DNA from: Phoronis australis
Taxonomy: Eukaryota; Animalia; Phoronida
Direction: 5' to 3'
Assembly (NCBI GenBank): GCA_002633005.1
Contig: NMRA01000171.1
Coordinates: forward strand, 664,669 to 728,668
Length of the DNA: 64,000 nt
The notes below the pieces were generated by a model, which was given only the letters and a program-made list of their open reading frames with translations, ran no database searches and was not told where the DNA came from. Each line of letters begins with the position of its first letter. Position 1 is the first letter of the stretch. The translations under genes and the position numbers were made by a program. Shown in pieces: positions 24,101-63,836 of this stretch.

Positions 24101-27100
24101 TTTAACTTCGTTTACTTCCTGTTGTAACCGAAGAGCGTGTTTGATGTTTGTCGACTGCTGAGGGTGGCAAGTGCACTGATTTCATAAAATAAACGGAGTA
24201 GTTGTGAACCAGAGGTATTCAATCTAGGAACACTGTTAGTAATTTAAAGTTTGGAAGTCAACAAAAACTTTTGAGACGAATTTTGGGGAATTGTTGTCTG
24301 ACTCGCAGTAGCAACCTTGTGGCAACATGCCAAACACATTCTGAAGTTGCAGTGAAGATAATTATACATTTGATCTTTTTTATCAACAGTTTCGGAATTG
24401 CACCAAATGTACTCTTTTTCAGCCATTCGCAAAGTGTGCTCACAAAAACGCTAAATTTTTCTCATTTTTAGGTTTCTTAAAGTGTTTCTATGCTTTTGCA
24501 AATTTTGATTTGGTTTTTTAAAATTAAATGTATTAGAATACTGGTTTTGATTTGTTCAGTAGTTTCCGATGTTTATTAAATTCTTTAGTCACGATGAAAC
24601 TGAAGAAAGTAATTGTTGCAGCCGATCTGACAGTGTAATGAGGTGCTTTTGTAATAAATGGTCAAGAATACTTTGAAATTGTCATTTTTAAATACTTGAA
24701 TTAATTGATGACCTTGACTTTCTGCAGTGCTGCTCTGAATTGGTTTCAACTATGTTCACCGTTGTCCTTACAGTATTGCTCTGGTCAGATTTGCCAACCG
24801 TGGCGACGATGCTTTTGTCCTCGTTGGCACGGCTCGTGACCTGGTGTTGAACCCGCGGTCGTGTGCTGGTGGCTTTGTGCATGTCTACCTATTGTCAAAA
24901 GATGGCGAAAAGTTGGAGTTCCTACACAAGACGGCCATCGAGGATGTGCCGATGGCCATGGCGGGCTTCCAGGGCCGTGTACTGATAGGAGTGGGCAAGC
25001 TGTTGAGGATCTACGACCTTGGCAAGAAGAAACTTCTGAGAAAGTGTGAAAACAAGGTGAGCCTAGTTTGTGCTGGTATTGGTGGAAGTTCGAGATAGGT
25101 CATTTGCTCGTGCAACAGTTTGTGAGATTGCCACATTTACATAGCGTAGTCGACAAACTGTCTTGCATAGACTCCTTCAGGTATGTTTTGGTTACAGCGG
25201 GTTCATATTGCTCATTGCAAGTGCATGTAAACCAATGCATTGTTCACGATGCATCTGTTTATCGCAGCCCAGCTCCACAGTTATTGTTCCCATCGATACT
25301 GTGGCGTTACTAACTGCGTAGACTAACGAAGTGCTGCTATATCACGCGCCCTGTTGGTTGGTGTGGTACGAAGCATTCCAACATTTCTGACGAAACAATT
25401 TTTAACTTGCTGATCCATAATGTTGTCAAAGACTTTATGTAAGGGTTGCCAGGATTCTGAGTGACGGTTTAACTGACCAGTCAGAATGCAGCATTCGTGA
25501 CACACCTTCATTTCTAAGCCGCCATTTCACCCGACAAACAACGTGTTGCCCAGTAAAACTTATTGTTTGTTTGTCGACATTGCGCAAGGGATGGATCTTG
25601 CGATAGGTCAATTGTTGCAACCAGTTACCAGTTTCATTCAAATTTGTTAAATGACAAACTCATATTTTCTTCACTGTGGTTTGTTATGTATGTAACAGAG
25701 CAAGTCTCCACTGAACATAAGAAATATGTATTTCCTCTCATCAGCATACGTTTCAGTTCAATTGCATATGACAACGATCAATTTTCATGATAGCAAAGGA
25801 AGGAAACACCCTTCCTCTAAGCCTGTCGCTAGCGAAGTGCCCGACACATACAGTCGCGCCCACATGCCCACGTAACAAAGGCGCACTGAGACGCAACAAA
25901 GACATTAGCATAAGAATAACTGAACATTTGCAACTAAATAAGAATAACAATAAAGTTACGAACGTCCCGTCCCGTCACATGTAGTGGACTTTTTGTCAGC
26001 TTTCAACTTGTAGTGCTGCAGCTGTTCCTGCAGTGTAATTTGCACCCACACTCAACATCGGACGAATCTATTTTTAGCACATTCCCAACTACGTCGTGGG
26101 CATCTATACTCAGGGCAACCGAATTGTGGTTTCGGATATACAGGACAGTTTCCATTTTGTGCGTTATAAGCGGCCCGAAAACCAGCTGATCATCTTCGCG
26201 GATGACACTAACACTCGTTGGATCACAGCTGCGTGTCTTCTGGACTACGACACCATGTGTGGTGCAGATAAATTTGGCAACATAGCAGTGGTGAGTGATG
26301 GAACAGCTCGGTTAGTTGAAGAACACAATGTGAAATAACAGAGTTTCTTAAAACGAGAATTCATGACGTTTGTTTCAGCTGAAGTACCAAGGTACTGCCA
26401 TTTCAGGTTTTTGGTTGTCTAACCTCAAGATTTTAGTATCCACATATTTCAGCAACTGGCAGTTTGTGAATATGAATTAATTATTAATGTAAGTTTTACA
26501 TTGTGTGAGAGCGGAACTGTATCTTTTATTTTAATTCTGTCATTCAGTTTAAATCACGGTAATACTTCAATAAAACCAATTCATTTGCTTATTCAGCCTT
26601 AGCGGTAATTTTAGTCGGCCACTGATCTCTATTACCCTGTATATGTTGCTACTTCAGACTGCTAACGAGAGTCAGAATTGATAAAAACATGGCTTCCTCG
26701 TGGTGGTTAAATTTGGACATGATGTTCCTCAATCCGTGTTTCACCTGAATTCACTGTGATTATGTTTTTTGAGCTGATCCTCGATACCACCATGGGTAGG
26801 GCAATTCGAATTCCTGAACTTTTTTACAAACCTCAGAAATTACTTTCACATTATATCCAGGTTCTCATTCCCTCTCCTGCATACATTCACTAGTAAGACT
26901 GAACTCGAAGAAGTAGGAAACACCTTTGTGCAATGCTTGATTGTCTGCCAGTAAAGCCTGGATTCGAACCCGAGTGAACCACACGATCTCTGAAACCGAA
27001 CCGGAGACCATGTCTTTGGTTCTTGGGCATGCAGATGGCTTACAGATCCAGCGATATTTTGTTGGAACTATTCTGTATTTTAAAAGTTCTTGTATTATTG

Positions 27101-44387: not shown

Positions 44388-44676
44388 ATGACACCACTTT
44401 CTCGCCCCTTCATGCCAAAGATAAATTTGTCAACTATGTAGTAGACAGTGAACATATCATGATAAAATCACAGAAATGTGGTGAAAATGAATAGTAATGT
44501 GAACTCTCAATAATTTTGGACAAAATAATTTGCACCACACCGCTGTGGTTCAATTTGCTGCTACGTATCTTTTATGAAAAGAATGGAAATCAACATTGCA
44601 CCTGTCAGCCACGTTGTGTCTAAAATGATTGGGATTTACCGTACAGAAATTTGGTAATCTGTAAACTATGCACCTG

Positions 44677-45048
44677 AACAACATACTTCCGGGAACGTAT
44701 TGACGTCTTATCACAAAGATCACATCATCTGAACAACATACTTCCGGGAACGTATTGACGTCATATCACAAAGATCACATCATCCGAACAACATACTTCC
44801 GGGAACGTATTGACGTCATATCACCAAGATTGCATCATCTCAACAACATACTTCCGGGAACGTATTGACGTCATATCACAAAGATTGCATCATCTCAGCA
44901 ACATACTTCCGGGAACGTATTGACGTCATATCACAAAGATCACATCATCCGAACAACATACTTCCGGGAACGTACTGACGTCATATCACAAAGATTGCAT
45001 CATCTCAACAACATACTTCCGGGAACGTATTGACGTCATATCACAAAG
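44677..45048. repeat. 55-bp minisatellite x6.8
   Basis: AACAACATACTTCCGGGAACGTATTGACGTCATATCACAAAGAT... at 44677, 44732, 44787, 44842, 44897, 44952 and 45007. Confidence 0.97.
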
Positions 45049-48000
45049 AATACAAATGAACGTATTCATACAGAACTAGTTTATTGTGCGAATCAACATC
45101 AATCAACAAATTACACACCAATAACAACAACTGAAATTTTTCATTTAATTTTCACCCGTCTCTATTGCAGTATAAACCTATCAAAAAGAGAGGTAATCGA
45201 TAGCTTTAGTTCGTTGTACGAATTTTACCTGATGATCGAACAATAATCACAGTTTGGTTTTATCCAAAACATATCGATCAAGTTTGGATTCAACCTTAAG
45301 TTGGTAAACATAACTGAAGACGTTTTCAGAATAGCTCTTTTGTAACACAGCATTTCTTAACGACACTGAAAGCGAATAAGCAGTAGAATTTGAACTTATT
45401 GCTGATAGTTAAAACGGGTATAAACGCATGTTCTGTTCTAATTTAGACCACATAGCGCTATAAAACTGATCTCAACTGGTTCCTCGTTCATGATTGGCTT
45501 GGAAAATCTTGAGCTGACAGTCGCTACTGCTGTGAGACCATACTCGGAGAATAAAACGAGCCGCTGTGACAAGCCAACATACAGGGCCTGGCTTCAAGCC
45601 GTATGAGGTTCTTCCACGACTAGAAATCACTTGATTTCACTAAGGAACAATTCGACACCGGTGTCATAACGATAAATGGTCCTACCTCAAAATGTCATTT
45701 GTGGCAGAAGGTGGGTTTATAGCCGACAACTGCTAATTACAGACTAAATGCATATCACAGATGTTGCCTAAGTAACATCAATAGAAATTGAATAAAAATC
45801 CTATCATTTTACGGCATAACTGAGAAGTTTATCTATCAATTCGTTTGCCGTAATAATCAAACAAGGTTTTATTGACTTATGTCACCGAATCAAGTAAAGT
45901 TCAATAGACTTTTTTCCTCGTCGAGAAATTACAGACAGGCGAAAATTATGAAGTTTGCCCGCTTGCTTTTTGACTGATTCTCCGGAAACGTGATTTGTTG
46001 TGCTATAAAACGAGTTTGGAAAATCTTGCATTGTACAAAGGAAGTGAGAGTTCTTTGGCATAATAAAAGCATGCTCTTTATCAACGCACACCTTTTTCTA
46101 CAAACTCCCACGCAATGCAAATAAATACACAAACAAATCACGGTCAACAAATTTTGACTTCTTGGAAATCATAGGCAACCAGCAATACTCAAGTGTTGCT
46201 AAAATATACATGTATTAAACTATAAGGTTGTGTAGGATCTTAAAATGTCTAAATTAGACTACCGAACGTCATATTTCATAAATGGCTGATAAGACTCATA
46301 GGAAACATTCAGTGGCATGCTTCATTCGCTGTTCTACAAAACTTTGTCCAGAACTGTTGTTGAATGAAAACGAAAACGAAATGATAATTCACAGATTCTG
46401 AAGTGTTCCTTAGATTTCATCTTCAATATTTACATCAAACAAACGCTGTTTTTCTAAGAGAGTAACTTTCTTTTTTTCCTAAATTTTAATAAAAACACAT
46501 GACCACGCGACCTAGTTAAAGGCAGATTAGTTTGAAGTCAAGAATCACATTGTACAAGGATTCTATTTACGGAAAAGATGTATTTTTAATGATTCAAAAA
46601 TGTAGAGTATAGAATGACTAGCTACATACATAGCTTTTAGCTTTGTCGATCAGGTCGTACATACTCTGAATATCAATTTTTAGCCAAGTCTAATCTAGTG
46701 ATGTCTGAAATTTACGGGATGAGGGTTAAACAAACGGCAAACGGTCTGACGCCACAATTCCATCGGACGTGCCCAGGTCACATGGGTCGATGGGTATATG
46801 TTCGCACCCGTCGCACCCCTTGGCAGACTTGTTTTGAAATGGTGCCAATAGCTTATGCCTTAGTTACCAGACTATGAGGCAGAGGAATGTCGACGGTAAC
46901 CGGAAGAAGAGCCCAGCCTTTCCCAAAACAAGTACGTATTATCTGATAAACGTAGCATGAGGCTAAAAATGGAATGATTGGTTCTGGGTCAGAGTAGTTT
47001 TGAGACCTGCATCCTATTTCAGCAGGCACCCGACGCGAATAGTAAAAAAGTATCTCAGCTGGCATCCCAGTCAGGTGACTTTCTTTTTTGAAAACATAGA
47101 CATCCAAAAATACCGCCATGATCACCTTATCAATTACGTAAAATACCACAGACCAGAAACAACGATGCTTTTTTGTGTGACCGAGAAATTTGCAGCATAA
47201 AACCCACCACCAGCTTACCTTTTCAAAGCCAGGCTACATAATTATCATCTGAAAGCAGGGCCCAGACTTTATATAAGGCTACATATGGGCTGATACGCCG
47301 TCCACACTCAAGCCAGCAGGTGTCGCAAATGAATGCTGATGAGGGGCAATTCGAAGGATGTTTACCCTACTTTCGGAGTGTCAGCCTACTTTTTGAAATA
47401 TCTTCATAATCTCGTGCAAGGAACAACATTGCTATTGATATTCAACATGTGATACATAAACCAGCCATAACTAAGTTGTTGACAACAAACATTAATTTCC
47501 TAACGCTTCCTAAGTTTTTAAAAGGTTTAGATATGTAACACTTCCAAGGACACGTATCGTTCTGACGTCCAACCTACGTTGGTTAGTACCAGTTCTAAAC
47601 ATTCCTCATTGGACTGCCAGTTGCAATTCTCTTTAAATCTTCGGCCCTAACAAAATTCAGCACGCATGAACACTGCACAACACAACATATATAGGAAAAC
47701 CTTCGGAAATTGCAGTAAACTTGGCGTCAAGACAAAACGAGAATATTTTTCTCAAAAGAAACCACTTCCGGGGATATGAAAACACCTGGATTTCAAAGGA
47801 TTCTCACAATATATTGGAAAATTGTCCTCGCTTGCTGTAATTGCAGCAATAATTCCATAGCAAATGATCACGACTGAGACAGAAGTCAAGGGGGGCTAGG
47901 TCACTTCCACCCGCTAAATGATATGAGTAGTAGTTTTGTTTAGGTGCCCTATTTGGGAGGGTCTTCGGTAAAAGATCATAAGTGGAGGGTGAAAGACTAA

Positions 48001-48394: not shown

Positions 48395-51300
48395 TCAATC
48401 GATAATTTCGCATTGGGGAACTTTTTTGATCAACCAGTAGGTTTTCATAATTCCCTTTCCCTGAAACAGACACAATAGAAAAGTTAATTGATTTCTAAAT
48501 AAAACACTCCACTTCGTCTATACTCTATAACGCGGGTGCTAAGTGTTATCAATGAGTGCAGAGGGTAACTAGTCAAGTATTTACACTGAAAAGACAATGA
48601 TAAATGCTACGTTCCGTTGCTAGACGTAAGACGCTGACCAAAAAGCAAGATCACGGAAGTCTTTGTGAGATAACGCCACGTATTAAAAGCGTCTACGGAA
48701 TGCAGGCTGTCGTACCTTAATCTCCACGTCACCGCGTAGCTCGGTGACGTAACCGCCCAAGTTCTGCAGAGCTTTGTTAGTCGGTTCACTCATTTGGATT
48801 CGCATTCCTATAACGAGGGATACCGGTTACAGAAATGCAATAAGTGCTTACATCAAAGATACTATAAAATCTTTGCTTACATTCAGAGCGACTAACACAA
48901 TTTTAATTGTTTGGTGAATTTCGAACATAGACAATGTAAAACATGGCTGAAAGAAAGGGGTGGAACGGATATCATTTCAATGTGTTTGTAACAGGTTTTT
49001 GGCAGTTTATCTTTTTCAGTTTGCAAAACACGTGTCGTGACATCTTTTTACGGATTTTACGTTTCTGTCTCCTTTTTTATCCTAGCGTCCGCTTTTTTGG
49101 CGCAGAACTAGAAACACCATTAAAAGTCCCATATCCGGAATGTGTGAACTAGGACTTATGTTCAGAACTTTCCGGAAAGTCTTGAACCTACCTTCGCCAG
49201 TCGATTCCATACGAGATGCCGTATTAATCGCATCCCCGAACAAACAATACTTGGGTCTTTTTAGTCCAATCACACCTGCCAGTAGAAAAATAATCATTAC
49301 GATAGTTATAAGGAGAAAAGAGTGTTTTCATGTTTGCATTCGAACCTAAAACCACCGCGGTCGCAATCAAGTGCTCTGCTGGAGGAGTTACGTAAACTCT
49401 ACTACAAATTCACCCACGCACCCACGCCGGACTAGGCTAATAATCTCATCCTAAAATTGCGTTTTTCCGTGGTAAAACTGAAGATGTTCCTTTAATCAAG
49501 AAACTATTAAAACAAGTCCACGTAGGACACGACGCTAATTGAACAGAAACCTACAGAGGGAGCCTGTTCGAATGATTCAACGGAATAAAAGGAAGAGGAA
49601 ATTAAATAATTGTAGAGGACATGGGAATTAAGATATAGGGAGCATAGAACAGTTCTCACAGGGGTTTGCCTATCAGAACACAAGTTAATGGACTTGTCAC
49701 CCTTTCTTCACTCTGTCAAAAACTGCATGCAAAGAATGAAAAGTTCTGGGTCATTTTCCATCACAAGCCCAACAGATGAGCACAGAAACTTCATTATCTC
49801 TTGTAGTTTTGACCCTTAGTTGCAGTCCTACAGATAAGCAAGGTAGACTAAGAAAAGGGGCAAAAACGCAAAATCGGCGCTTTTCACCCTAAAACACCAC
49901 TTCCTTGCCCACAGTCAACACTTGATTCTGAAAGCAAATTCCCACCAACTACAAAAATGGCGTCTAAACGTACTGTCAACCAACTAGTTTTTTTGCAAAT
50001 CTGGCTTATTTGAGGGTTACCTGAAATCGCAGACAATTTCTCAGTCGCTACCCAGCAAAGCACAATTGCAACAGCGGCGCCATCTTGAAGAAGAGTGTAG
50101 CCACAGCCGAGTAAGTGGTCGTTTGAATTCTCATCATGTTCACAAATACAAACAACCTACATTCACTTGGCCTACATGCAATACCTGACTAGAGAATGGC
50201 CCCAAGCCTGGCCTACCCCTAGATTTTAAAATTTTAGCAGTGCAAATTGTCCACGGCAGCAGTATAACAGTACAGGGCCATCACAATGACTTATGTCCTC
50301 CATATCTCTCTTGAAACCACTGTGTTTAGGGTTAAAGAAAGGTAATCTGGTGGATTTTACTCCTACCAAATATCAGGAGACCAACCGTCAAGAGACGCAG
50401 TGAGACCCTCCATGCGGTTAGGGAGATATATCGGGTGTAGTTTATACCCCTTTAAAGGAAGAGTTATGAAAAATATATGCACCCAAAGGAAAATCAAATT
50501 GAGCTTATGATCCGATCAGTGCTGGTTTCAGTTGTATTTGGTTCAAAAAGGGGGGGGGGGCAGTCAGTTCCCGTCGACTGAATTGAAGCCATCAAATTTT
50601 GGAAGGGCCGGCAAGCGTTTTTTACTCATGCATACTATGAATGCACCACAACAGTGAAATATTCGTAAATGATTTTGTTGGAGTAAGTAGCCTTTTGGAT
50701 AGCAAAACAAAAGGAGACAGCAATTTACTTATTTATCAATTTATTTCTACACCATCTCTTGTTTTTTGTACAAGTTATCAAATAATTAAAAAGCTATACC
50801 CGCGCAGCATGATCCAGTGTGTATGCCTATTCTCACTGTCAATCTCTCTTGGGGGCAGTGTCGTATAGTGAACGAGGGTACAGCATTTAGGATTTCCAAG
50901 GCCATGTTAGCTATCTGTTGCAAGTGGTCTTCAATGTCCTCTGGTACTCCGCTGGCAACCATGTAAGCATCACCAATCGTCTCGACTTAATAGAAAACAA
51001 GACTTCAATCAATTACTTCATAAAACAAAAATTCCAACCATTCACCCTGCCATCCCAGGACAAATATAATTAGTCGAATGCACACTGGTCTGGTCGTTGT
51101 TACGACAAAGTTGCGTTCTGTTGAGNATACAGGCCCAGTTCGACACCCAGTGAAGAGGACAGTTCGTCATCCAATGAACAGATCGGTGAGCCTAAGTTTG
51201 ATAAGTTTATTGTGGACTTGTATTGGAGCTATTTGGAAGGTGCCAGGTGTGTGGCGAGGGAGTCACACGGCGGGATGTAAGCAGTTTGAGTGCTTAGATC

Positions 51301-54300
51301 ACCCTTCAGTGGGAGTGTGTCGCGGGACACTCGGGCAAGTGGGACAGTTCTTCCTCTGTACGTGAGACGATAATGAGTAAACCCCAGTACGCAGCAACAG
51401 CGTGGCGTGTTGACTGACTCGTAAGCAAAAGCAAACAACGACCGAACTTATCACAACCGAGGTAGAGCAATGACTGAGTCGACTGCTCTCACAGTCAGAC
51501 TATATGAACAGAAATTGGCGCGAAATTCTTGCCTCCCAAAACGTCACTTCCGGAGTAGATGACGAGTAATTAATTAAATTACGAAAAGCAGTAAATAAGT
51601 GAAAAATATGTCTGGGATAATCAACGAATCTTATTTTTGCTAAAACTAACATGAAAAAGGTTGCCTTCGCCTTTAAAACTTCCGTATGTTTACTTCGTGT
51701 TGGAATCCAAGCGCGTTTCATGTGTGCTGACTGCTGTGGTAGCAAATGCACTGATTTTACGAATTGAACGGCACAATTGTGAACCAAAGTTATTAAATCT
51801 AGTTAGTTTGTAAGTCAACACAAACTTTGAAACGATCTTTGGGAGAATTTTTGTCTGACTTTTATGCTCGTAGTGGCGACATAGTAACGTCACTTGGTAT
51901 TTTTCCCAGGTTGCCAAACGCAATCTGAGGTCACCTGTAGGTCGTCAAATGGAGCACTATAAGTAATGATTTCTCGCTGCACATGGCTCACGAGTGTCCT
52001 ACTCAACGGAACGCAGTCCACATGGGCTAAAACAAAATTAGCCGTGCTACGAATTTGAACATTGTTTCGTGCGCGAGTCCAAATTACTCAATAAGCGCGT
52101 AAGTCCGCGACGGATGCAAACCAAGGGACATCGCAAGAGCAGAAGGAGGGTGTCAAGTACAGAGCCGGAGTCATTGGGTCTTCAGAATAATTCAATGGCT
52201 GCAGGTATAAGCGAGCGAGACATTTTTTGCCAAGATTAAACTTTCACCTCTCGTACCCGACTCGTTGTTAGTTAACTAACACGTTTTAACAGAAGCCTTC
52301 GCATCAATGTGAAACAGGCCTCTGATATGTTGAATTCTGAGCCATAGAACTTCCCCCAGTTCTGGAAATGAACCAAAATAAACAGTAACCGTTGCATTTG
52401 ATTCATTTTACGTTCAGCGGTGTCATCTGATTGGTCTGTAAGCCGGAAGTCGTCATCGAGAAGTAAATCAAGTGCAGCCGGTGCCCTTCGACGATAATAT
52501 GTCTCGTGCGCTAACGCCGACTTGTTATGTCTCTGGGTACAATAGGAATGTGAAAGATCCTATTCTGAGTATTTGTTGATTGTAGCATGATAATGTACAT
52601 GTTGAGACGTCGTAAAAAACAGCGACTTCAAAGTCATGCTATGACTTAAAAATTGAAAAACAGCAAGTCAAAATTAAAACTCATCTTGTACACGTTATAG
52701 TTGTTGATAATATCATCAAACATGGTATACAAGTCGTTCAGGAAGTTGACAATCTGAAGAGGCGTCGAGCTGGAGGAGATACGGGTGAAGCCGACGATGT
52801 CACTGAAGAAGACTGTGACACGTGAGTGATATCGTGGTTCAACCTGCTGCCCGACTTTCAGACAATCGGCTATAGATCTGCAAATGCAAAATAATTCAAT
52901 TGAAAAGTTTGATGCAAACTCGCTATGCTCACGTCTTTTAAGCGCTGTGTAAGTATAGGTCAAGTTGCATATAGATGGTGTAGTCTAGCAAGGTCCAAGA
53001 AGAATATATATATATATATATGGTATATTTCGAAACTCGCCATGTCTAGCCTTCACGAAGAAATAAAACGAAACCTTTTTGGTTCATATTTTACACAAAT
53101 TTGACATATGTATTCCAAATGATCTAGTCAAAGGTTCCATGTAATGTATGGGTAACTCACCCATACTAAAAAGCCAGCACCAGTAAATAGTAACAATTAT
53201 AGTGTTTGCGTGAACACGTTGTGCTAAAGGTTATGTAGGACTCCAGAAAAAATCCAAATTGGTCTAAATTTGGAACATTATATCGCAGAAAATGGCTAAT
53301 CAAATGAAACTTTCAGATACTACCGTTATGCAGTGTTCTCTCCTGATAGGAATTGTGTTTAAATTGTTCCGCTTTTGCATGAAGGGCTATTAAAATATGA
53401 TCTCATTAGCTCAAAAGTCAAATAAATGAAAAAGAAATCATATGTTAGGAAACTGCAACAGCTTTTTAATATCTGATCTTGAGCATCTTTATCAAATTTT
53501 AAAAATTTAGCCATGTTATTTATACCGTTATGGTGCTACCAATATACCTTTGTTTTTGTTAAATTTCACTAAAAGACATGGCCACTTGCTCAATGGATAG
53601 AAGACTGGCAAAAATAAAAGAAATCTAATTTTAAATGCTCAATCTACTTTCTAATAATATATACATTTACTCAGTTAAAATCCATAGTTTTAATGTGTTG
53701 CCTACTGCTTTTGTTACTTTTCTCCTAAAACGAGGGTGAGATGTTTTGATTCATCAAGAAGAAACAATTCAACAAGGATTACAATGTTGCTGTGTTTAAT
53801 AACCCACCTTTCAACCGGAGGTGTGATAACGATAGCCAACAATTATCTTGTCCTAAGAGCTGTGTCCGAAAATCTAATTTTATTAAGGACTACTAAATCT
53901 CATTTTAGCTGATTTATAATCGTGATAGAAAAACCATTTGACGTTAGCAAGTGAGCAGGGACAAGTTCCAAGAAAACTGACTTAGTTAAAGCAATTCGTA
54001 AATTTAAACAAATTTAAAGATAAATTTCAACTTCTCTGAAGTCCGTTCGAAGAAAATGATCACAAGTTCGACTTAAGGTTTGTCTTCCGTTCGACTAACT
54101 TAGCGGACGTGGAAGTTTCAAAGTTTGGAAGTCGAGACAAAGCTTAGACTTAAGTGAAAAATTAACTTAAGTCAGTTTCTTGAAACGTGCCCATGATCTT
54201 TAGCAACATTCTGTACTTACTGCGGCAACATTTCGTATAGTAACGTTTCTGTTTTTCTTTTCTCCATAAATAGCTCGTTCGTGCGTTGTTCAACCAACTT

Positions 54301-56340
54301 TTCCAGGTTGTTCGCATATTTTTCCAGTAGTTCGATCATGTTCTCCACGATATTTCTCCTAAAATAAAACCAAAAATGAACACCTATTTAATAAAACATT
54401 AAAGCCCTTAACACGTATAACGAGGGATATTACTGTGCAGCTACGCACAGCGTGAGCGTACGTGTGCGAGTACGGGGCTACTACGCGAACTATCAAGAAT
54501 GACTCGAGTCACCGTCCAATAAAATGCTCCCTTAGTCGAACATCCTCTACAATAACGCCCTATTACTCCGCGTTCAAAACAGACTAGTCTTACTTTGGGG
54601 AAGAATGAATGAACCAAACTTTGGTTGCCGACAGTGGGCTACTCCAGGACTCTGCTTCATGGCTTTTACATGTAAGTCACTTTTCATGAAAAAAAACCTT
54701 TAGGAATGAGTCCAAACAACTATTTCTGAAAAACAATTAACTCTCGCTTGAGCAAAATTGCAAAGTCCCTGAAAATATACATATAACTGTTTGTTACAGA
54801 AATTATTCACATTAATTATTTCTAGACTGTGACGCGCTCATATTTACGTCATCAGCAATTATGAAGTAGAAGTGCAAGACCAAATTTCTGTCTTTAGTCT
54901 TAATTAACTTTAGTCTTAATTAACTTTAGTCTTAATTAACTTTAGTCTTAATTAACTTTTCATGAAACGGACCCCTGCAATTAACACAAAGTATTAGCAA
55001 CATGCAATATGAATAAAGGAATGAATAAATAATTCAATACACAAATTATTATTGTTACCTTCCCTGGTTGATTTTCTTTATAGTACCACTTATAACGGCA
55101 AAGGTTGGTCTGGTCTGGGGGTACTCCCGCCAACACAGTTTCATCAGTTCGATGACTTCCATGTAGTTTTCGTTCTTCACCTTCACTTCTGAGTTGACGC
55201 GAGTGCTGGGGCGGAAACCCTCGTTACGAATTCGCCGCATGGTTTCTAATGAGAAATAACCACAACGCTGATGATGCTGATACGTGACCAATGATAATAA
55301 TAGTGATGATTATATTGATATTAATGAAGATAATAATGATGGGATACCGATAATAATATTAGCACCCGTTCATGAAACTAGGCCCGACAAGTAGCAGCGT
55401 GTTGCCGCCAAGTGTGCTCTCTAGACTTTTTCATTTTAATGATCAGTTGTTAGGTACGGTGACCCGCAATTTTTTTTTAATTGCTTCGCAAATAAATTAC
55501 GGTACATATTTAGCCCAGAAAGCAATCCTTTATATTTAGGATTTTAAAGATGCATAGTCTCATTAAATTGTGAATATGCAAATGAAGTAGTAATTTACAA
55601 ACAACCGCGGGTCTCCCAGTCAGCCGGAAACCACCCACGAGCCAGTTACTATTACAATCTCGCGAGACTATTTTTATGTAAATAAGTATGGCGGACGAAC
55701 ACCGGATGTCGTCCACCGACAACTGAGGTCTGGCTACTCCGCCGACACTTCTCATGGTGACCACAACGAAAGCATTCGTTCAATAATTCCATTTTGCCGT
55801 CACCTTGCACAGTCTTCGACATCATGCCATTTGCGTCTCTGTTATTGCAAATTCGATGTATTTGCACACCCAGTCCTTCTTTATTCAGCCCATTCAACAA
55901 CAGTGCAACGACTTGTCAAATAGTCTAAAGAAGGCTGACGGTTATGATGACGTCAGACACAAACTCATCAGTTACCTGTGGATGTGGTCATCATACACTG
56001 TAGCTGTCCCTCCCTTCGTTTTCAGTCATTTCGTTGTATATACCATACAAAAGTTTTAATTTATTTTTAATTCAGTTTGTAAATTCAATCTGTAAATATT
56101 CATTTTAATTTAATGTAACTTAATTTAATCTATCTTAGTTTATTTAATTTATTCTTTTTGCTGTGAGAAGACCATGCTGTATATTAGCCTTTGGCTAAAG
56201 AATGTTTTAATATCTATTATATTTTATCCTCTATGAATAAAGATTTATTACTATTATTATTATTATTTATTGTTATTATTATTATTCATTATTATTATTT
56301 ATTATTATTTATTATTATTATTTATTATTATTATTTATTA

Positions 56341-56391
<51 letters not shown>

Positions 56392-59300
56392 CTTCTCGTC
56401 CACATTTGTTAGGATGACACCGAAATCCCTGGGAAACTCCCACAGAATTGTCCTTACCTAATAAAACAAGGCACAGTTTTTATTATTTGTTTATTTCAAT
56501 ATCAAATAACGATTGCCTAATATATGGAATTTCCAGGGTTTTTATATGTTCATACTTGTTTTTATTTATTTATTTACAAATTGTTTCTTTTCCTGATTGT
56601 ACTTGTACATACGATCTGCAGAAAGTCACTAGGTGGCGCTTGCTACAAATTTAAATATTCAGTTTTAATGAGACATAGCATCTTTTACTATAAAATAATG
56701 ACTTACTAAGTGTAACACATTAATGAGCAAAAACACCATAAGTAAAGAAAACAAAAAATAAGAACAAAATCACACGGTAATAAAGGAGAACACGTTCAGA
56801 AAACATTATACAAAAACATAAACTAAGCAAAACAAAAAGCTCAGGGTAGATATTAATACAGTTGCCTATCATGACATTTAAAAATACAATCACAAAGATT
56901 TATAAGTAATAGAACATCACAGTAGTGGTTCAAATTGCGACAACCATATAATAAGAAAACTAGTTTTTCAAGCCTATTACTAAGATTTTGAAAATATAAC
57001 CAGATATGATCGTTGGATTGCAGGTTGCGAAAGAGCTGTTCACGCTCAGCGTTATAGACAGGGCATGAGAGCAAGTCGTGGGCATCACTATTAATTGTCC
57101 GACATTGTATTTGACATTTTAGTTAAATTACTTTTTTATTTTTCGTGTTTCGCCTGGGTGGAAATAATTTACTCCTAGGTGAGAATGAATTCATCTAAGT
57201 GGAGATATTTTCTACCCGGGTGTAAACATTTTCAAGCTGGGTGGAAATATTTTGAACCTATGTGGAAATAATTTCAACATTTTCAACCCCAGCGGAAATG
57301 ATATACACCTATGTTCATATGATTTCCACCACATCCACGTGAAAATTATTTCCACATGGGTTGAAATTATTTCCTCCCGGGATGAAATTATTTATAGCAG
57401 GGTGGAAAATATTTACGCGTAGGTGAAATCATTCTCATCTGTGTGTTAATTATTTACACCTAGGTGAAAAAAGAAAACAAAAAAGTAATTTACCTAAAAT
57501 GGTGATATTTTCGGACCACTGATAGTTTATCAGTAACTTTCATTTCTTGTCGTATAATGATCATATTTGATGAAATTGACTTATTTCTTTCATTTTCCCA
57601 CAGAACCCCATTTTAAAATCCCAAAAAAGAATTTGGAAACCTGTCACGAAGAAGCCCGCGAATAGCATCTAAAATTTCGATGTTTTTGCAAACACGATAT
57701 GTACGCTGATTCTGACCCGGAAGTCTTTGTCAGATCCCGAGATGTGCAGTCTGACTTTTAACCAAAACAACTACCTCACCGTGGCGATGTGGGTAACACA
57801 GCGATTGGTTACGTGACATTGGTAATGTTTTATAAGCATCGCTTAAAAACAACGATTGCTTACGTTTCATAAGTTCATTAATTAATTGATTTGAACGTAT
57901 AGAATTAATGTGTTCCGTGACAAGGCAACGGAAAGTAGAAAACCTAAAATAGGCAGAAAATAAGCAGACTGAAGTCATTGCCTGCCTACCTTACTGGACG
58001 TGATGTCTGAGCAATGAGCTCAATTTAGCTCAATGCTTTAAGTAATCACGACTTTCAAAAACACACACCGGAGTTTTCCGATCAAGCGCCCATCACCCAT
58101 GTGAACGTTTCGGAGATGGGCATTTTGTTCTGAACAAAAAAACGACGGGTGGTGTTTAGAGCACATTCCCTCAAATTGCATGTTATCACATATACCTTTT
58201 CATTTTGCGACCCCTGAAATGACCGTTTTCCGTTTTGTGCAAAAGTTGGCTGGCATCTTAGGTCGACAAATGACGCTTAATTTGTTTAATGCACCCACGC
58301 AACCAACACAGTTAAATCGTTTTGGCATTTCTACCTCGTGACTGAGTATGGACGTTTGTGAAGCATCACGCAAGATCCAATTCCTTTTCGTTCAAAACAT
58401 GACTTATAATCTGCGTTTGCAAACTACATCCCACTCACCCCTGATCACACACAGACAGCGCATTACCATATTCTTTGTGTATCCAACACAATAAACCTAT
58501 TTGTTACTAATGACTTGGGTAAAGCATCTCACCTATGGTATTCTTGGTGTAGCAAGGTCTGTAAACACTATTCTCATGGCATGGAATGGCGAAAGGATTC
58601 TACTGTGCTCTACTGTCTTATTAACTATTAGAAATGACATTTGGTTAAGTTTCACAATCTAGGGTTTGCCCAACATAAGGTAGCCATCCTCTTTTGAAGT
58701 GGTGGAAACCTCGAACTGCCGAATCATGATGCGATTTTCAAAATCTAACATTCTCAAAGGAAACTCTTTTAAGTGTTGATCGAGGTAACATGAACAAGCC
58801 TTTTATATACTTACAACACGCTAATCAACCGCCATGTACTTACCACAGTGAAATTTGTCAATTTCACAGATGTTAGGTTGCGTCAACATCACAGCAAAAT
58901 CAAGATTCCGAAAAGTGCGTTGGGATTAGCGTCATCTCGGAAACAAAAAGACTAACAAGCACTTTATCGGAAATGCCCGGTGAGGTATATACCTTCTGCG
59001 GGTCCGCTGTCGCCAAAGACTCCCTCTCTGAAGACGATCTCATGAAGAATAATCCCGAAGCTGTACACGTCTCCAGCCTGAGACCCCCTTTCAGGCTTTT
59101 CTGTGCGAAAAAATTCCGGAGCAGTCCACAACTGGTCTGAAAATAAAAGTTTTGAGTTCTGGGCACAAATAACCCGACATTGAGAAAAACAACGCGTGAA
59201 CAATCTTCACCAGTCAATTAGGAGCATCCGCTTAACCTATGGTGTGAAACAAACAGAAATAAAATAACGAGGGTTAACGAAAGTGAGAGGTGTAGCATCT

Positions 59301-62300
59301 AGTATAGACATCTTCCAGATAAAGAAAACCATATTTTTCTATATTGAGGAAAATGGCACCTATGATAGTGTACGCATTACAGTGTCGCACGTGCTGGGCA
59401 ATATTATAGCCAAGCTGGATGAGAGAAGACACACAGTACATAACCACAAAATGTTATCGTGCCATACTTCGGTGAAAACGTTCACCATTGCCATCAGTTC
59501 AAAATGTGGCGATTGGAGCGTTTTGTTTGATTTATTTAAACACTAAAGTATTATTCACCACAAGATCAAAATCGGCAAAGCGCATTTTTATTGTTTTGCA
59601 AAACGTTATATTTGTCTCATGCGACGCTGACTACAATCTTTCAAAGAGCCACCGTCCGAGAGGAGTAGCGAGAACGGAAACGATTCAAAAGGCGCACAAT
59701 TTCACGTGTGAGCGTCAGCCTAGTGCACATGTCCTGGTTTGCACGTTTGTCCCAAAACAAATGATCTGGGAAAGAGCAGTAAACGTATATTGTTTTACTT
59801 GAATTAGTCACAAAACACAAACTTGTGAAGAATGCTTCGATTTAATACGTCGTTATTGTACTAAGATATCCGATTACTATAACGTCCAACAAAAGCTCAC
59901 TTAAAATGCTTAAGGAATCTAAGCCTGATTTTTTGTCGCCATTGAAGCTTGGTTGATGCAATTTCCGGATTTTAGTCGAAGTGCGCGCACCAATGAAAAG
60001 AAATTTTTTATCAGAGACAATGGCTATGCATTTGACCAAAATACTTTTTTTTTCTTTCGAAATTTTAATAAAAATATCGAAGTGTCTGATCGACAGTCAT
60101 CAAAAACGCTGGCTTTCGGTTGACGGTAAAAATAGTCTAATCAGACGTTATTCAAGTCACCTTTTGGCAAAAAAGGTTCCTTAACAATTTGAACGTGACC
60201 CGATCCCGTCCCAGTTTTTTTTTGACCAAGCTACTACGTAAGTAGAACAGCAAGTGAACGGGGAAACAAACCACCTAGCCTTTTACCACTAAAAACAATA
60301 CGATCACCGACACCTTTTGAGTAGTTTTCTAATGTCTCATTTCAAATTGAAACAGTTAGTTGACTTTATAAAAACAGAGTGCGACCGGATAGCTACTGTT
60401 TCATCAGGGTCAATTTGCTCGTGGTATTGTGATATTAAAACACGCTATGGGACCAAACATAAAGTCTACTCCAAAGGTGGTGTTGAAATTAACTTGAAGT
60501 AAGCATAATAAACTTGAAAGGCGGGAACTGGAACGCCTGCGCTACATGACAGCCGACGATATCGATTTTTGAACGCGAGCGTAGCTCAGCTGCCCCAAAG
60601 AACTAGAAAAGTGTGCGACTGTCGAGTGCGCTTGAATGGACCGCTCGTACAACATATCTATGAGGTATTTAATGACAAATACCGTAAATGTCCGTGTACG
60701 ATAGAGCGCTTACAACAGATTATTTGTTAATTTCACATCTATTGGCGTTTATTGGAGATCCGGCGTTTATTATCTATCAGACCAGAAAAATCACCGTTGC
60801 TAATCGTTCGCTCCAAGGTCGTGATAAGTTGCTACATGTATCTCACGCATATCACATGATTTATAAAATATTATACGTGTATGTGCTCCACTTTTGGCAC
60901 TCGTTGTTTCGTTGTTATGTATATAGCATGCAAACCGGCGTACATTAGAGACCGGTTTCTACGTTTATTAATTTCAGGGTACCAAATTGAATTGCTTCTA
61001 TTGGGAACCCGATTTATTACTTGGCGGAATTCTTCGAATTCCGACAAGTATGTTGCTCTGTCGTCATTTTTTTTTGTTCGCACTCTACAGGTCGCAATTT
61101 TCGTCTTATTTTCACGAAATTTGCACACAACGTGTAGATCAGAAAGTCCTGGAAGCCTATTGTTTTTGGTCATGATCAAATACAAAATGGCGGACGTGGC
61201 GGCCATTTTGTATCCGATTTCACAGTCAAATGCTCGTAGAGGCCGCATTTTTCAACGTACATGGCTGAAATTCGGTACGATTATAGTAAAACGCATGTGC
61301 TACAAGTGTGCAGAAAATCTTTGACTTCCGGTCAAAGATGGCGGAAATATTGGAAGTGGCGCATGCGCACCCCGAAATATGGCCAAAAACGTTTTCTCAT
61401 GTAGAGGGCGCATTTGCGAACCAATCACTTTCAAACTGCTCACGTGTTTGTTGAGTTTAATAAGCTTTTATAAAAGTTTATTGAACCGGAAGTCACTTTC
61501 AAGATGGCGGCTGTGGCGCATGTTCATATTAGAATGTTAGAGGTACAAGTCGGCGGGTGCAGTTAGATTCCAGAAATCAAATAAAAATGCAACGCCCTGG
61601 AACAAATTTTTCCGAAAATATGACCAATCATACCTTTTTCTGCCGACCAACATTGACCACAGGCGAACACGTTTTTGGTCTTTGTTGTTGGAGAGGACTT
61701 ATGACAAAGTTTCGCCCGGGTACAGGGGTAGGAGAATTTCATGTCAGGTGGGCACCACTTCCCCGTATATTTACATTAGATGCTCCCCAGCCTAAATTTT
61801 ACTCAAGTCGGGGGGGGGGGGCAATTGCCTCTAACCCCTACCTAATAGACCTACGAGTCCGTGGTGACTATAAACATTCCGAAATTAGCTAAATGTTGGC
61901 TGTCTAAATCAAATCCAAGGATTTGTACAATATGCTGTTAAGTCCATGCAAAAACCATTCCACGAAAAGACATGAATTAATAATAAAACAAACAGCTCCA
62001 TCACCCATCATCCAATCGCATATTTAAGATGTCACACGGAGGGGGGGGGTGCAATTTAAACTTTTGAACACAAATGTTCGCGTGAATTCTAAAAAATAAC
62101 ATGTCGTAGGCGTTTTGTTCTTCGTTCTTTTCGGGATCAAGTAGGTTGGGCCGGGCCTCCTGTGAATTCAAACATGATCTTCGTCAAATTGGTGCGTTTA
62201 CCTGAAGAAAGTTAAATTTACTGCTCTCCAGAAAACACCAAAAACAGCTCAAATCCACCAGATGAAAGTCAATAAGTGCATAATGTTACTTCTTGGTGAA

Positions 62301-63836
62301 TCAAAGTAAAGTCATCACAAGACTATACTCCTGGTAACTCTGGAAGAGATTGTAGAAGCAAGAAATAACAGCGTTTTTTGCATAAGCGAGGCCTACCGTG
62401 GTACTCATCTCCGCAATGTTGCTTCAAAGATATGATCTCTGTTGGCCCAAAGTCTGTGACCTTAAGTACCCATCGATTGTCTACAACACAGTTTGAACTC
62501 TTCAATCGCCCATGAGATTTCAGTTTGGAGTTGTGCAAGTATGACATCCCCTGTGAATATTCAAATGTAAACAAAACAAAAACCATTAGTGCCAGGAAAT
62601 ATTCTAAATAATTGTGCACGAGTAATAACATATTAAAGTATATCAAAACAATCCTTATCATGTTATTTTATTTCCAATCAGCACATGAGTCATAGAATAA
62701 CGTGGCCATTTTACGTACTATATTTTAAAAATGCTTAAATTAAAACTTTCACTTACAATTGCGTTCATATTATTATCATCACCGTTATTAATAATATTAT
62801 CATTACCGCTACTGTTGCTGTTACTCAAGCTGCTGCTGCTGGTGCTGATGGTGGTGGTGCTGCTGGTGCTGCTACTGCTGCTGCTGCTGCTGCTACTACT
62901 ACTATCACTACTACTATTACTACTGCTACCTTTCCTTTTAAAGTTATAACAGCACACAAATAATTTTAAAACCGACTTAAGGATCTAGAAACCAGTCTCA
63001 AGCCTCTAGCATTATAGTCTAGGGGGATGTAAGAGAGGCGTGCTCTACTACTAGTCCACAGTTCCTCCTCGAGGAAGCGTTGCTTTTACAAAGATGGGAC
63101 GTGTTCGAAAAGGAACAAACTCTGTTCATCTGATCGTTAATAAGAGGATTTCGAAACTGAAGAAACTTTACCGTCACAACGCAACTGTCTGATCTTAATA
63201 TCGTCAAGAGGAAAGAAATGAATTGAAACTTGTTCGTAAAGTTCATTAGTCACATTTTCAACAAATCAATGACTGTCACTACAGTGTACTAATTCATTAA
63301 GGATACTAGCCAAATAGATGAGGACACAAGGGGCCTTATACGTGCATGACCATCGGACAAATAAACAAATAAATAAAGACTCTTACCGCCGTTAAATCAC
63401 TTATGAAAGAGCATCTGAAAATCCAATCCAGCGAAATGTCCGTATTGTCTAAAATTTCCTGAAAATGGAAATGGATGCTAATCAACAGAGTAATATAGAT
63501 CTACAACAATAGAAAATGAGGTTTAAACGAATTAGCTACGAATTTATAAACAAGTCTTCATACCTTTTGATTCAGGCCACTAGCATGTATTATCAAGAAA
63601 TTGATGCCAAGCTGTTATTGGTCGGATTGGACTGATCTCTGGAAAACTGACAGTTCGTCCATGCATAATACCCGGCACAAATAAGTTGCTTAGTAACCCT
63701 CCAAGTAAAAATGAATACATGGCGTTCTTACCTCAAGGCTGCCCTTTTCACAGAATGCGAAAACCAGACAAAAATTCGGGGATTGAAGACTAGCGCCGAC
63801 AAAGGAGTTGATATTATCGTGCACCATATCGCGCAT
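48395..63836 (-). CDS. Receptor-type (NPR/speract-receptor-like) guanylyl cyclase, 3' part: kinase-homology domain, coiled coil and cyclase domain (5' exons lie beyond the right edge)
   Basis: Exons (minus strand): 63732-63836, 63387-63458, 62397-62550 ([23 protein letters not shown]), 58993-59136 (LWTAPE...[12 protein letters not shown]), 55059-55245, 54221-54358 ([16 protein letters not shown]...LLYEMLP), 52685-52877 ([12 protein letters not shown]...VYK), 50800-50986 ([13 protein letters not shown]), 49192-49275 ([18 protein letters not shown]), 48716-48807, 48395-48460 ([10 protein letters not shown]). Phases are all consistent; one intron has non-canonical ends. Confidence 0.95.
50987..52684 (-). 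other. Probable non-canonical AT-AA intron of the guanylyl cyclase
   Basis: TACAAG|ATGAGT...TTTTCTATTAA|GTCGAG restores YK|VETIGD at phase 0. Confidence 0.7.
53958..54192. mobile_element. MITE with ~30-bp imperfect TIRs
   Basis: GGGACAAGTTCCAAGAAAACTGACTTAGTTAA ... TTAACTTAAGTCAGTTTCTTGAAACGTGCCC. Confidence 0.6.
54892..54958. repeat. 16-bp tandem repeat x4
   Basis: CTTTAGTCTTAATTAA units. Confidence 0.9.
56100..56389 (+). mobile_element. LINE 3' tail ending in AATAAA plus (TTA)n
   Basis: Short hairpin TTAGCCTTTGGCTAA, then AATAAAG, then a long (TTA)n tract. Confidence 0.5.
57115..57501. mobile_element. Foldback-like element with TIRs and internal ~21-22-bp subrepeats in inverted arms
   Basis: CATTTTAGTTAAATTACTTTTT ... 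AAAAAGTAATTTACCTAAAATG, with repeated GGGTGGAAATAWTT units. Confidence 0.6.
62810..62930. repeat. (CTG/GTG/CTA)n compound microsatellite, intronic
   Basis: Trinucleotide tract between cyclase exons; it produces the poly-L and poly-S ORFs in the track. Confidence 0.9.

Follow-up and report, generated by a model that had tools for sequence, protein, structure and literature searches.

A probable U2-type AT-AA intron in the catalytic core of a phoronid receptor guanylyl cyclase gene

Can the major spliceosome remove an intron that carries A rather than G at both its first and its last base? The rule that these two bases pair with each other rests on engineered mutants, on structures from cryo-electron microscopy and on conserved AT-AC introns, which number a few dozen. 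The question is raised by a stretch of 64,000 nucleotides (nt) from the Phoronis australis assembly (GCA_002633005.1, contig NMRA01000171.1, positions 664,669 to 728,668; hereafter the window), where a receptor guanylyl cyclase gene is interrupted at the YK/VETIGD junction (the slash marks the splice site) by an intron with AT...AA ends. We consider it probable that this is a lineage-specific U2-type AT-AA intron, excised by the major spliceosome, in which a terminal A-A pair has replaced the G-G pair.

The sequence-only reading of this DNA had delimited the intron, and its coordinates and letters match the sequence exactly. In the assembly letters of the minus strand, the upstream exon finishes with the codons TAC AAG at 52685, the intron opens with ATGAGT at 52684 and closes at 50987 with TTTTCTATTAA; from 50986 the following exon reads GTC GAG ACG ATT GGT GAT. 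When the intron is removed, the 11 exons give 473 codons with a single terminal stop; when it is retained, a stop follows after 12 codons. All of the other mapped introns in the window are GT-AG (30/30, 9 in the cyclase gene and 21 in the SF3B3 gene). Thus, AT-AA ends are no habit of this region.

An RNA joint falls exactly on these ends. RNA from three raw runs (about 18-19% read per run) and from one contig set, X5 to X8 together, was mapped onto 48400-55300, and a joint was listed only if it had at least 3 reads from 2 starts per run. In run X6, five reads with five starts join 50986 to 52685 and skip exactly 1,698 nt. This joint ends TT..AT on the plus strand, that is AT..AA on the gene, with the 'both' count at 0 and no ambiguous letters; the letters are those of the reference. 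At the same threshold, X5-X8 list neither the joint that would encode YKMIET (50985 to 52681) nor the one shifted by a single base (TG-AG, encoding YKIET; 50985 to 52684). The junction that the sequence-only reading had put forward, with YKMIET as its competitor, is therefore the one seen in RNA. In the exon bins, reads lie in a single orientation, which matches the minus-strand gene. Elsewhere in the gene, two canonical joints have 3 reads each in X5 and none in X6, so joint counts here are at the sampling floor; 3 reads in X5 support the GT-AG joint on the 3' side of the downstream exon (50800..50986).

The same mapping brought up other features of the locus. At 52796-52802, two linked read differences extend over a short stretch (23/23 reads in X5, 6/11 in X6); we infer an expressed paralogous cyclase and left these reads out of the evidence. 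Four intronic segments (51127-51700, 52426-52462, 53944-54190 and 54660-54960) draw many RNA reads on both strands with loose ends and are interspersed repeats, and part of the AT-AA intron resembles 24110-24303 at 73%. Within intron 6 of the cyclase gene, at 53251-53481, RNA depth of about 4-6 on one strand is found in both X5 and X6, with fixed differences at 53298 and 53313; this may be a repeat, or else an unannotated exon of a related locus.

Which class of intron do the ends belong to? Donor and acceptor matrices were built from the 30 canonical introns of the window, each scored held-out; the SF3B3 junctions among them had been picked from GT/GC-AG candidates, and none scores more than 9 points below the best join found without that constraint. 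When +1 and +2 are left out, the donor AAG/ATGAGT scores 7.47, higher than every one of the 30 canonical donors, and it follows the U1/U6 consensus outside the terminal dinucleotide. In fact, ATGAGT is one base from ATAAGT, the strong consensus of metazoan U2-type AT-AC donors (PMC5029451; this and the other papers cited by PMC number are drawn on in part), the same source giving the U12 donor motif as RTATCCTT. Near the 3' end, a pyrimidine tract and a predicted degenerate branch point are present, though they score low: the last 60 nt hold one YTRAY, at -26, and no AC. Thus, the intron shares with U2-type AT-AC (type II) introns an AT within a U2 donor and lacks their AC at the 3' end, the RNA joint giving AA. 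Neither of the U12 hallmarks, the RTATCCTT donor or the CCTTAAC-type branch site, is found: the donor has 4/8 mismatches to the motif ATATCCTT, and the best match to CCTTAAC in the last 60 nt has 4/7. The earlier view of the donor as U2-like and not U12-type is borne out by both the matrices and the motifs. Local folding at the intron ends is ordinary.

Relatives offer a view of the same intron position over longer times. Among 121 matched stretches from 120 homologues, 109 read YK-[VI][EA]TIGD and none carries an inserted residue at YK/VETIGD. The other 12 diverge straight after YK, continuing with V in six, A in two, and S, E, I and K in one each, which would, as expected, reflect read-through into the intron or alternative ends; the lone stretch that continues with I is a tick isoform, seen at the protein level. 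At the YK position, 33 short proteins comprise 22 that continue with V, one with A, none with M or I, seven that are spliced or whose exon continues, and three without the motif; 25 had been labelled automatically as V read-throughs, and the 22 (two of only 1-2 residues) remained after 3 were reassigned to 'exon continues'. We read a V as the probable trace of a GT donor and an A as that of a GC donor. A metagenome scan returned at least 93 loci, mostly distant cyclases, of which 80 were kept; two of them, L002 and L009, have a GT-AG intron at the same position that can be read directly from DNA, the only such cases among the loci listed. Together with the homologue read-throughs, they substantiate the earlier statement that a phase-0 intron at YK/VETIGD is common to other animal cyclases. 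Because relatives normally have GT donors here, the position is old and the AT-AA ends are likely derived. In three homologous open reading frames (P0005, P0056 and P0262) the sequence runs YK/A..., which suggests GC donors at the same position. The lysine codon AAG may make this donor tolerant of change.

How would such an intron be spliced? With every other donor position near consensus, and with the lysine codon AAG (-3 to -1) as a help, U1 and U6 would still choose the donor; U2 would use a branch point of the ordinary kind, predicted some 23 nt before the 3' end. At the second step, the first intron base would pair with the last, so that an A at +1 would disfavour AG ends. First and last intron bases are described as forming a non-Watson-Crick pair, the second-last base pairing with the branch A (PMC11585973; PMC6461851), and in U2 introns a last-base C restores splicing after the first G has been changed to A (G1A; PMC1557818). 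With A at +1 and without any AC among the final 60 nt, TAA/ would be the compatible end; an A at the last base of U2 introns may also rescue G1A, more weakly. We envision an old GT-AG intron both of whose ends changed in this lineage, with the strong donor compensating. In fact, a donor stronger, apart from +1/+2, than all 30 canonical ones fits the pattern of compensated GC-AG donors, in which the remainder of the donor is stronger (PMC1557818). Given that retention brings a stop 12 codons in, with loss of the cyclase core, selection would keep the splice working. The earlier suggestion of a rate-limiting splice for cyclase activity finds no support here. What is established is the AT-AA ends in the letters of the assembly, the intact reading frame and the joint in RNA; the splice-site letters make the major spliceosome the likely agent of excision.

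A number of points weigh against this account. The joint comes from one of the four RNA sets, with no reads in X5, X7 or X8, and X5 reads cover the downstream exon and none spans the joint. It is also flagged 'between: not known', and no extra letters are given for it. RNA and DNA come from different samples, and sequence differences between RNA and reference are available for 40 of 577 rows, so the RNA donors may carry other letters at the intron ends; the ends are known from the letters of an assembly that contains isolated Ns, one of them within the intron at 51126. The matrices are built from only 30 introns, and they do not favour both ends equally: the sequence-only reading had called both textbook U2 sites but for the G>A changes, which holds for the donor and needs qualifying for the acceptor, whose score of 1.87 is above 7/30 canonical acceptors, within their range yet low and below average. 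No AT-type donor was found at this position among the 120 homologues and the 33 short proteins. Regarding chemistry, the second step is blocked by G1A in introns of yeast and human (PMC4299874).

Several of these points speak for an AT-AA confined to the assembled haplotype, either a private and possibly null allele or an assembly fault at one or both bases, with GT-AG or AT-AC ends, spliced normally at this place, in the animals that gave the RNA: the position of the joint is silent on their letters, the samples are not the same, the relatives examined show no AT donor, and Ns occur in the assembly and inside the intron itself. However, this explanation needs two hits on precisely the two terminal bases, and two independent G>A errors there would be expected at about 1e-7 to 1e-9 per intron if the error rate is taken as 1e-3 to 1e-4. 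A donor above 30/30 canonical ones fits long-term compensation instead, and the 473 codons run without a stop or frameshift. Among sequencing runs, no RNA run is listed as containing this sequence, and four DNA runs of one sample share 0.55-0.78 of words; the latter may be the source of the assembly and are not counted as support. Altogether, we regard a private haplotype or a fault as unlikely, while allowing it some weight.

RNA editing would give the same joint by another route. If ADAR converted one or both terminal A to inosine, the spliceosome would see GT-AG and the cyclase would depend on editing; both changes are A for G, exactly what A-to-I editing reverses, a rival that the sequence-only reading had not raised. 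Human genes offer examples of edited AT-AG and GT-AA sites (PMC4176328). Moreover, the donor (52687-52670) is predicted to form an 18-bp helix with a stretch of the previous intron (13 Watson-Crick and 5 G-U pairs, -14.9 kcal/mol), the longest among 62 intron ends and matched in length by 0/300 random As, 1/34 genomic tiles and 1/500 shuffles. But this helix is weak, with its partner 1.3 kb away, and it was noticed post hoc; the partner stretch falls in a bin with repeat-like reads on both strands, and by duplex energy the donor is the weakest of 31. The acceptor helix is ordinary (8/34 tiles, 123/500 shuffles), and none of the 25 longest of 53 inverted repeats covers either splice site. A G lies 5' of the donor A, a neighbour that ADAR disfavours. 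The 40 of 577 difference rows contain no A>G row at the terminal intron bases, with unspliced depth at the donor almost nil, which speaks neither way. Every edited case in the table of PMC4176328 alters one end only. Thus, we hold editing to be quite improbable, and still more so a double gate in which ADAR converts both ends from AT...AA to GT...AG, guided at the donor by the 18-bp duplex, as an obligatory step for active cyclase.

The remaining explanations have very little in their favour. Cutting by the minor spliceosome, with the intron a degenerate member of the U12 type, would account for the dinucleotides: among minor introns with non-canonical ends, AT-AA is the most frequent pair (PMC10639083 counts 823 in animal clusters, 1.1%). 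But donor and branch both match the U12 motifs poorly, and relatives have U2-like GT donors, so that this reading is highly unlikely. Equally slight is the chance that a shifted GT-AG pair (TGA/GTTTTA ... AAG/TC) gives the main mRNA, encoding YKMIETIGD: it keeps the frame with canonical dinucleotides, and fewer than 3 reads in a run would leave its joint unlisted, but against the 5 AT-AA reads none is listed, no homologue has the insertion, and its donor (-11.7) and acceptor (-5.1) fall below all 30 canonical sites, in line with the earlier judgement of a very poor donor and an extra residue. In a wider search within 60 nt, all 11 frame-keeping GT/GC-AG pairs had negative donor and acceptor scores and altered the conserved motif.

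Table 1. Positions of the intron, its splice sites and the associated features in the window.
Feature	Position	Strand	Basis
Intron with AT...AA ends, phase 0, 1,698 nt	50987..52684	minus	sequence and RNA joint
5' splice site AAG/ATGAGT, U2 consensus except for +1 A	52679..52687	minus	donor scoring
3' end: YTRAY-like candidate branch at -26, short T-rich tract, TAA/G	50986..51012	minus	predicted branch
Upstream exon, start of cyclase domain, FSDIVGFT ... YNVYK	52685..52877	minus	
Downstream exon, VETIGD ... IGIHTG	50800..50986	minus	
Stretch of 18 nt within the previous intron, with predicted pairing to the donor	54017..54034	minus	found post hoc
Receptor-type guanylyl cyclase gene, 3' part, 11 exons (kinase-homology, hinge and catalytic domains; 5' part beyond the window)	48395..63836	minus	tblastn exon map
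Complete SF3B3 gene, 22 coding exons, 21/21 introns GT-AG	9108-30390	plus	

The host gene was mapped by tblastn with 12 homologues, its exons running from 63836 to 48395, and its product is 50-52% identical to the 12 best homologues over about 465 amino acids. Of the parts of a receptor guanylyl cyclase, it has the kinase-homology, hinge and class III cyclase regions with the motifs FSD, ETIGD, YCLFG and NxASR; the extracellular and transmembrane domains would be encoded by the 5' part, beyond the window. At 49192-49275 (minus strand), K stands in place of the R of PRYC, as in 0/78 homologues with the motif, and A in place of the usual T, as in 1/78; from these residues, activity may be altered or constraint relaxed. 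Downstream of the gene, 44674-45049 holds a tandem array with a 55-nt period (6.8 copies, 93% matches). The SF3B3 gene, whose exon matches are about 70% across annelids, echinoderms, vertebrates and molluscs, encodes a U2 snRNP (small nuclear ribonucleoprotein) subunit and lies about 18 kb from the 3' end of the cyclase gene, a nearness that is probably a coincidence.

If the U2-type AT-AA reading is true, an A-A pair is tolerated by the major spliceosome in a splice on which the gene apparently depends. A natural AT-AA intron of the major type would then have arisen from GT-AG, with relatives still at hand for comparison, and both ends of an intron could change together in evolution. Such an intron would probably constitute a natural test of mutual recognition between intron ends, and gene predictors overlook introns of this class or splice them wrongly. 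This being one intron, the impact is limited to splicing specialists.

What, then, is already known of such ends? In the literature searched, AT-AA introns are U12-type or unclassified, with neither a U2-type AT-AA intron nor an intron of this kind in a cyclase, though subscription papers and further supplements (intron databases, PMC7072748) may hold one. The covered parts of PMC1557818 count U2-type AT-AC introns (15 in human, 6 in mouse and 3 in fly) and have no U2-type AT-AA class, AT-AA appearing in the U12 table only. The 'Total' sheet of PMC4176328 has at least 25 ATAA rows, 20 labelled U12_ATAC and 5 Non-U2/U12, with none labelled U2 among the matches listed; its classifier may lean to U12 for AT donors. 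A mouse set has 8 ATAA junctions, untyped (PMC13149111), none of the 79 non-canonical introns tabulated for fly is AT-AA (PMC4528330), and the parts of PMC10853796, PMC7367187, PMC11347168 and PMC7072748 covered here add no U2-type case. An AT-AA intron is present in SCN4A of snake and Anolis, where paralogues have AT-AC (PMC4209135).

The SCN4A position of snake and Anolis is one that we take to be U12-type. Four known systems resemble the cyclase intron in part. U12-type AT-AA introns (RASGRP4, MSH3; PMC1557818, PMC10639083, PMC4176328) share its terminal dinucleotides but have the donor and branch motifs of the U12 type, both absent from the cyclase intron. Editing-dependent sites (ADARB1 GT-AA, C14orf37 AT-AG; PMC4176328) likewise have A for a terminal G in a U2-like context, with one altered end in the cases of that table, whereas here both ends are altered in the assembly letters. 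In GC-AG introns, a weak terminal dinucleotide is offset by a stronger remainder of the donor, as here, and GC-type donors are suggested at this very position in three relatives; however, GC-AG introns retain the +1 G and the 3' AG, and this intron retains neither. Closest are the type II AT-AC introns (sodium-channel alpha genes, TAF2; PMC1557818), which have the same +1 A in an otherwise strong U2 donor and a non-G terminal pair, and for which use of the major spliceosome, likely here, has been shown in SCN4A and SCN5A (PMC1557818). They end AC and have been kept between distant species, whereas this intron ends AA and its relatives have GT or GC donors. Thus, the cyclase intron most likely works like a type II AT-AC intron, though its AA end sets it apart from that class.

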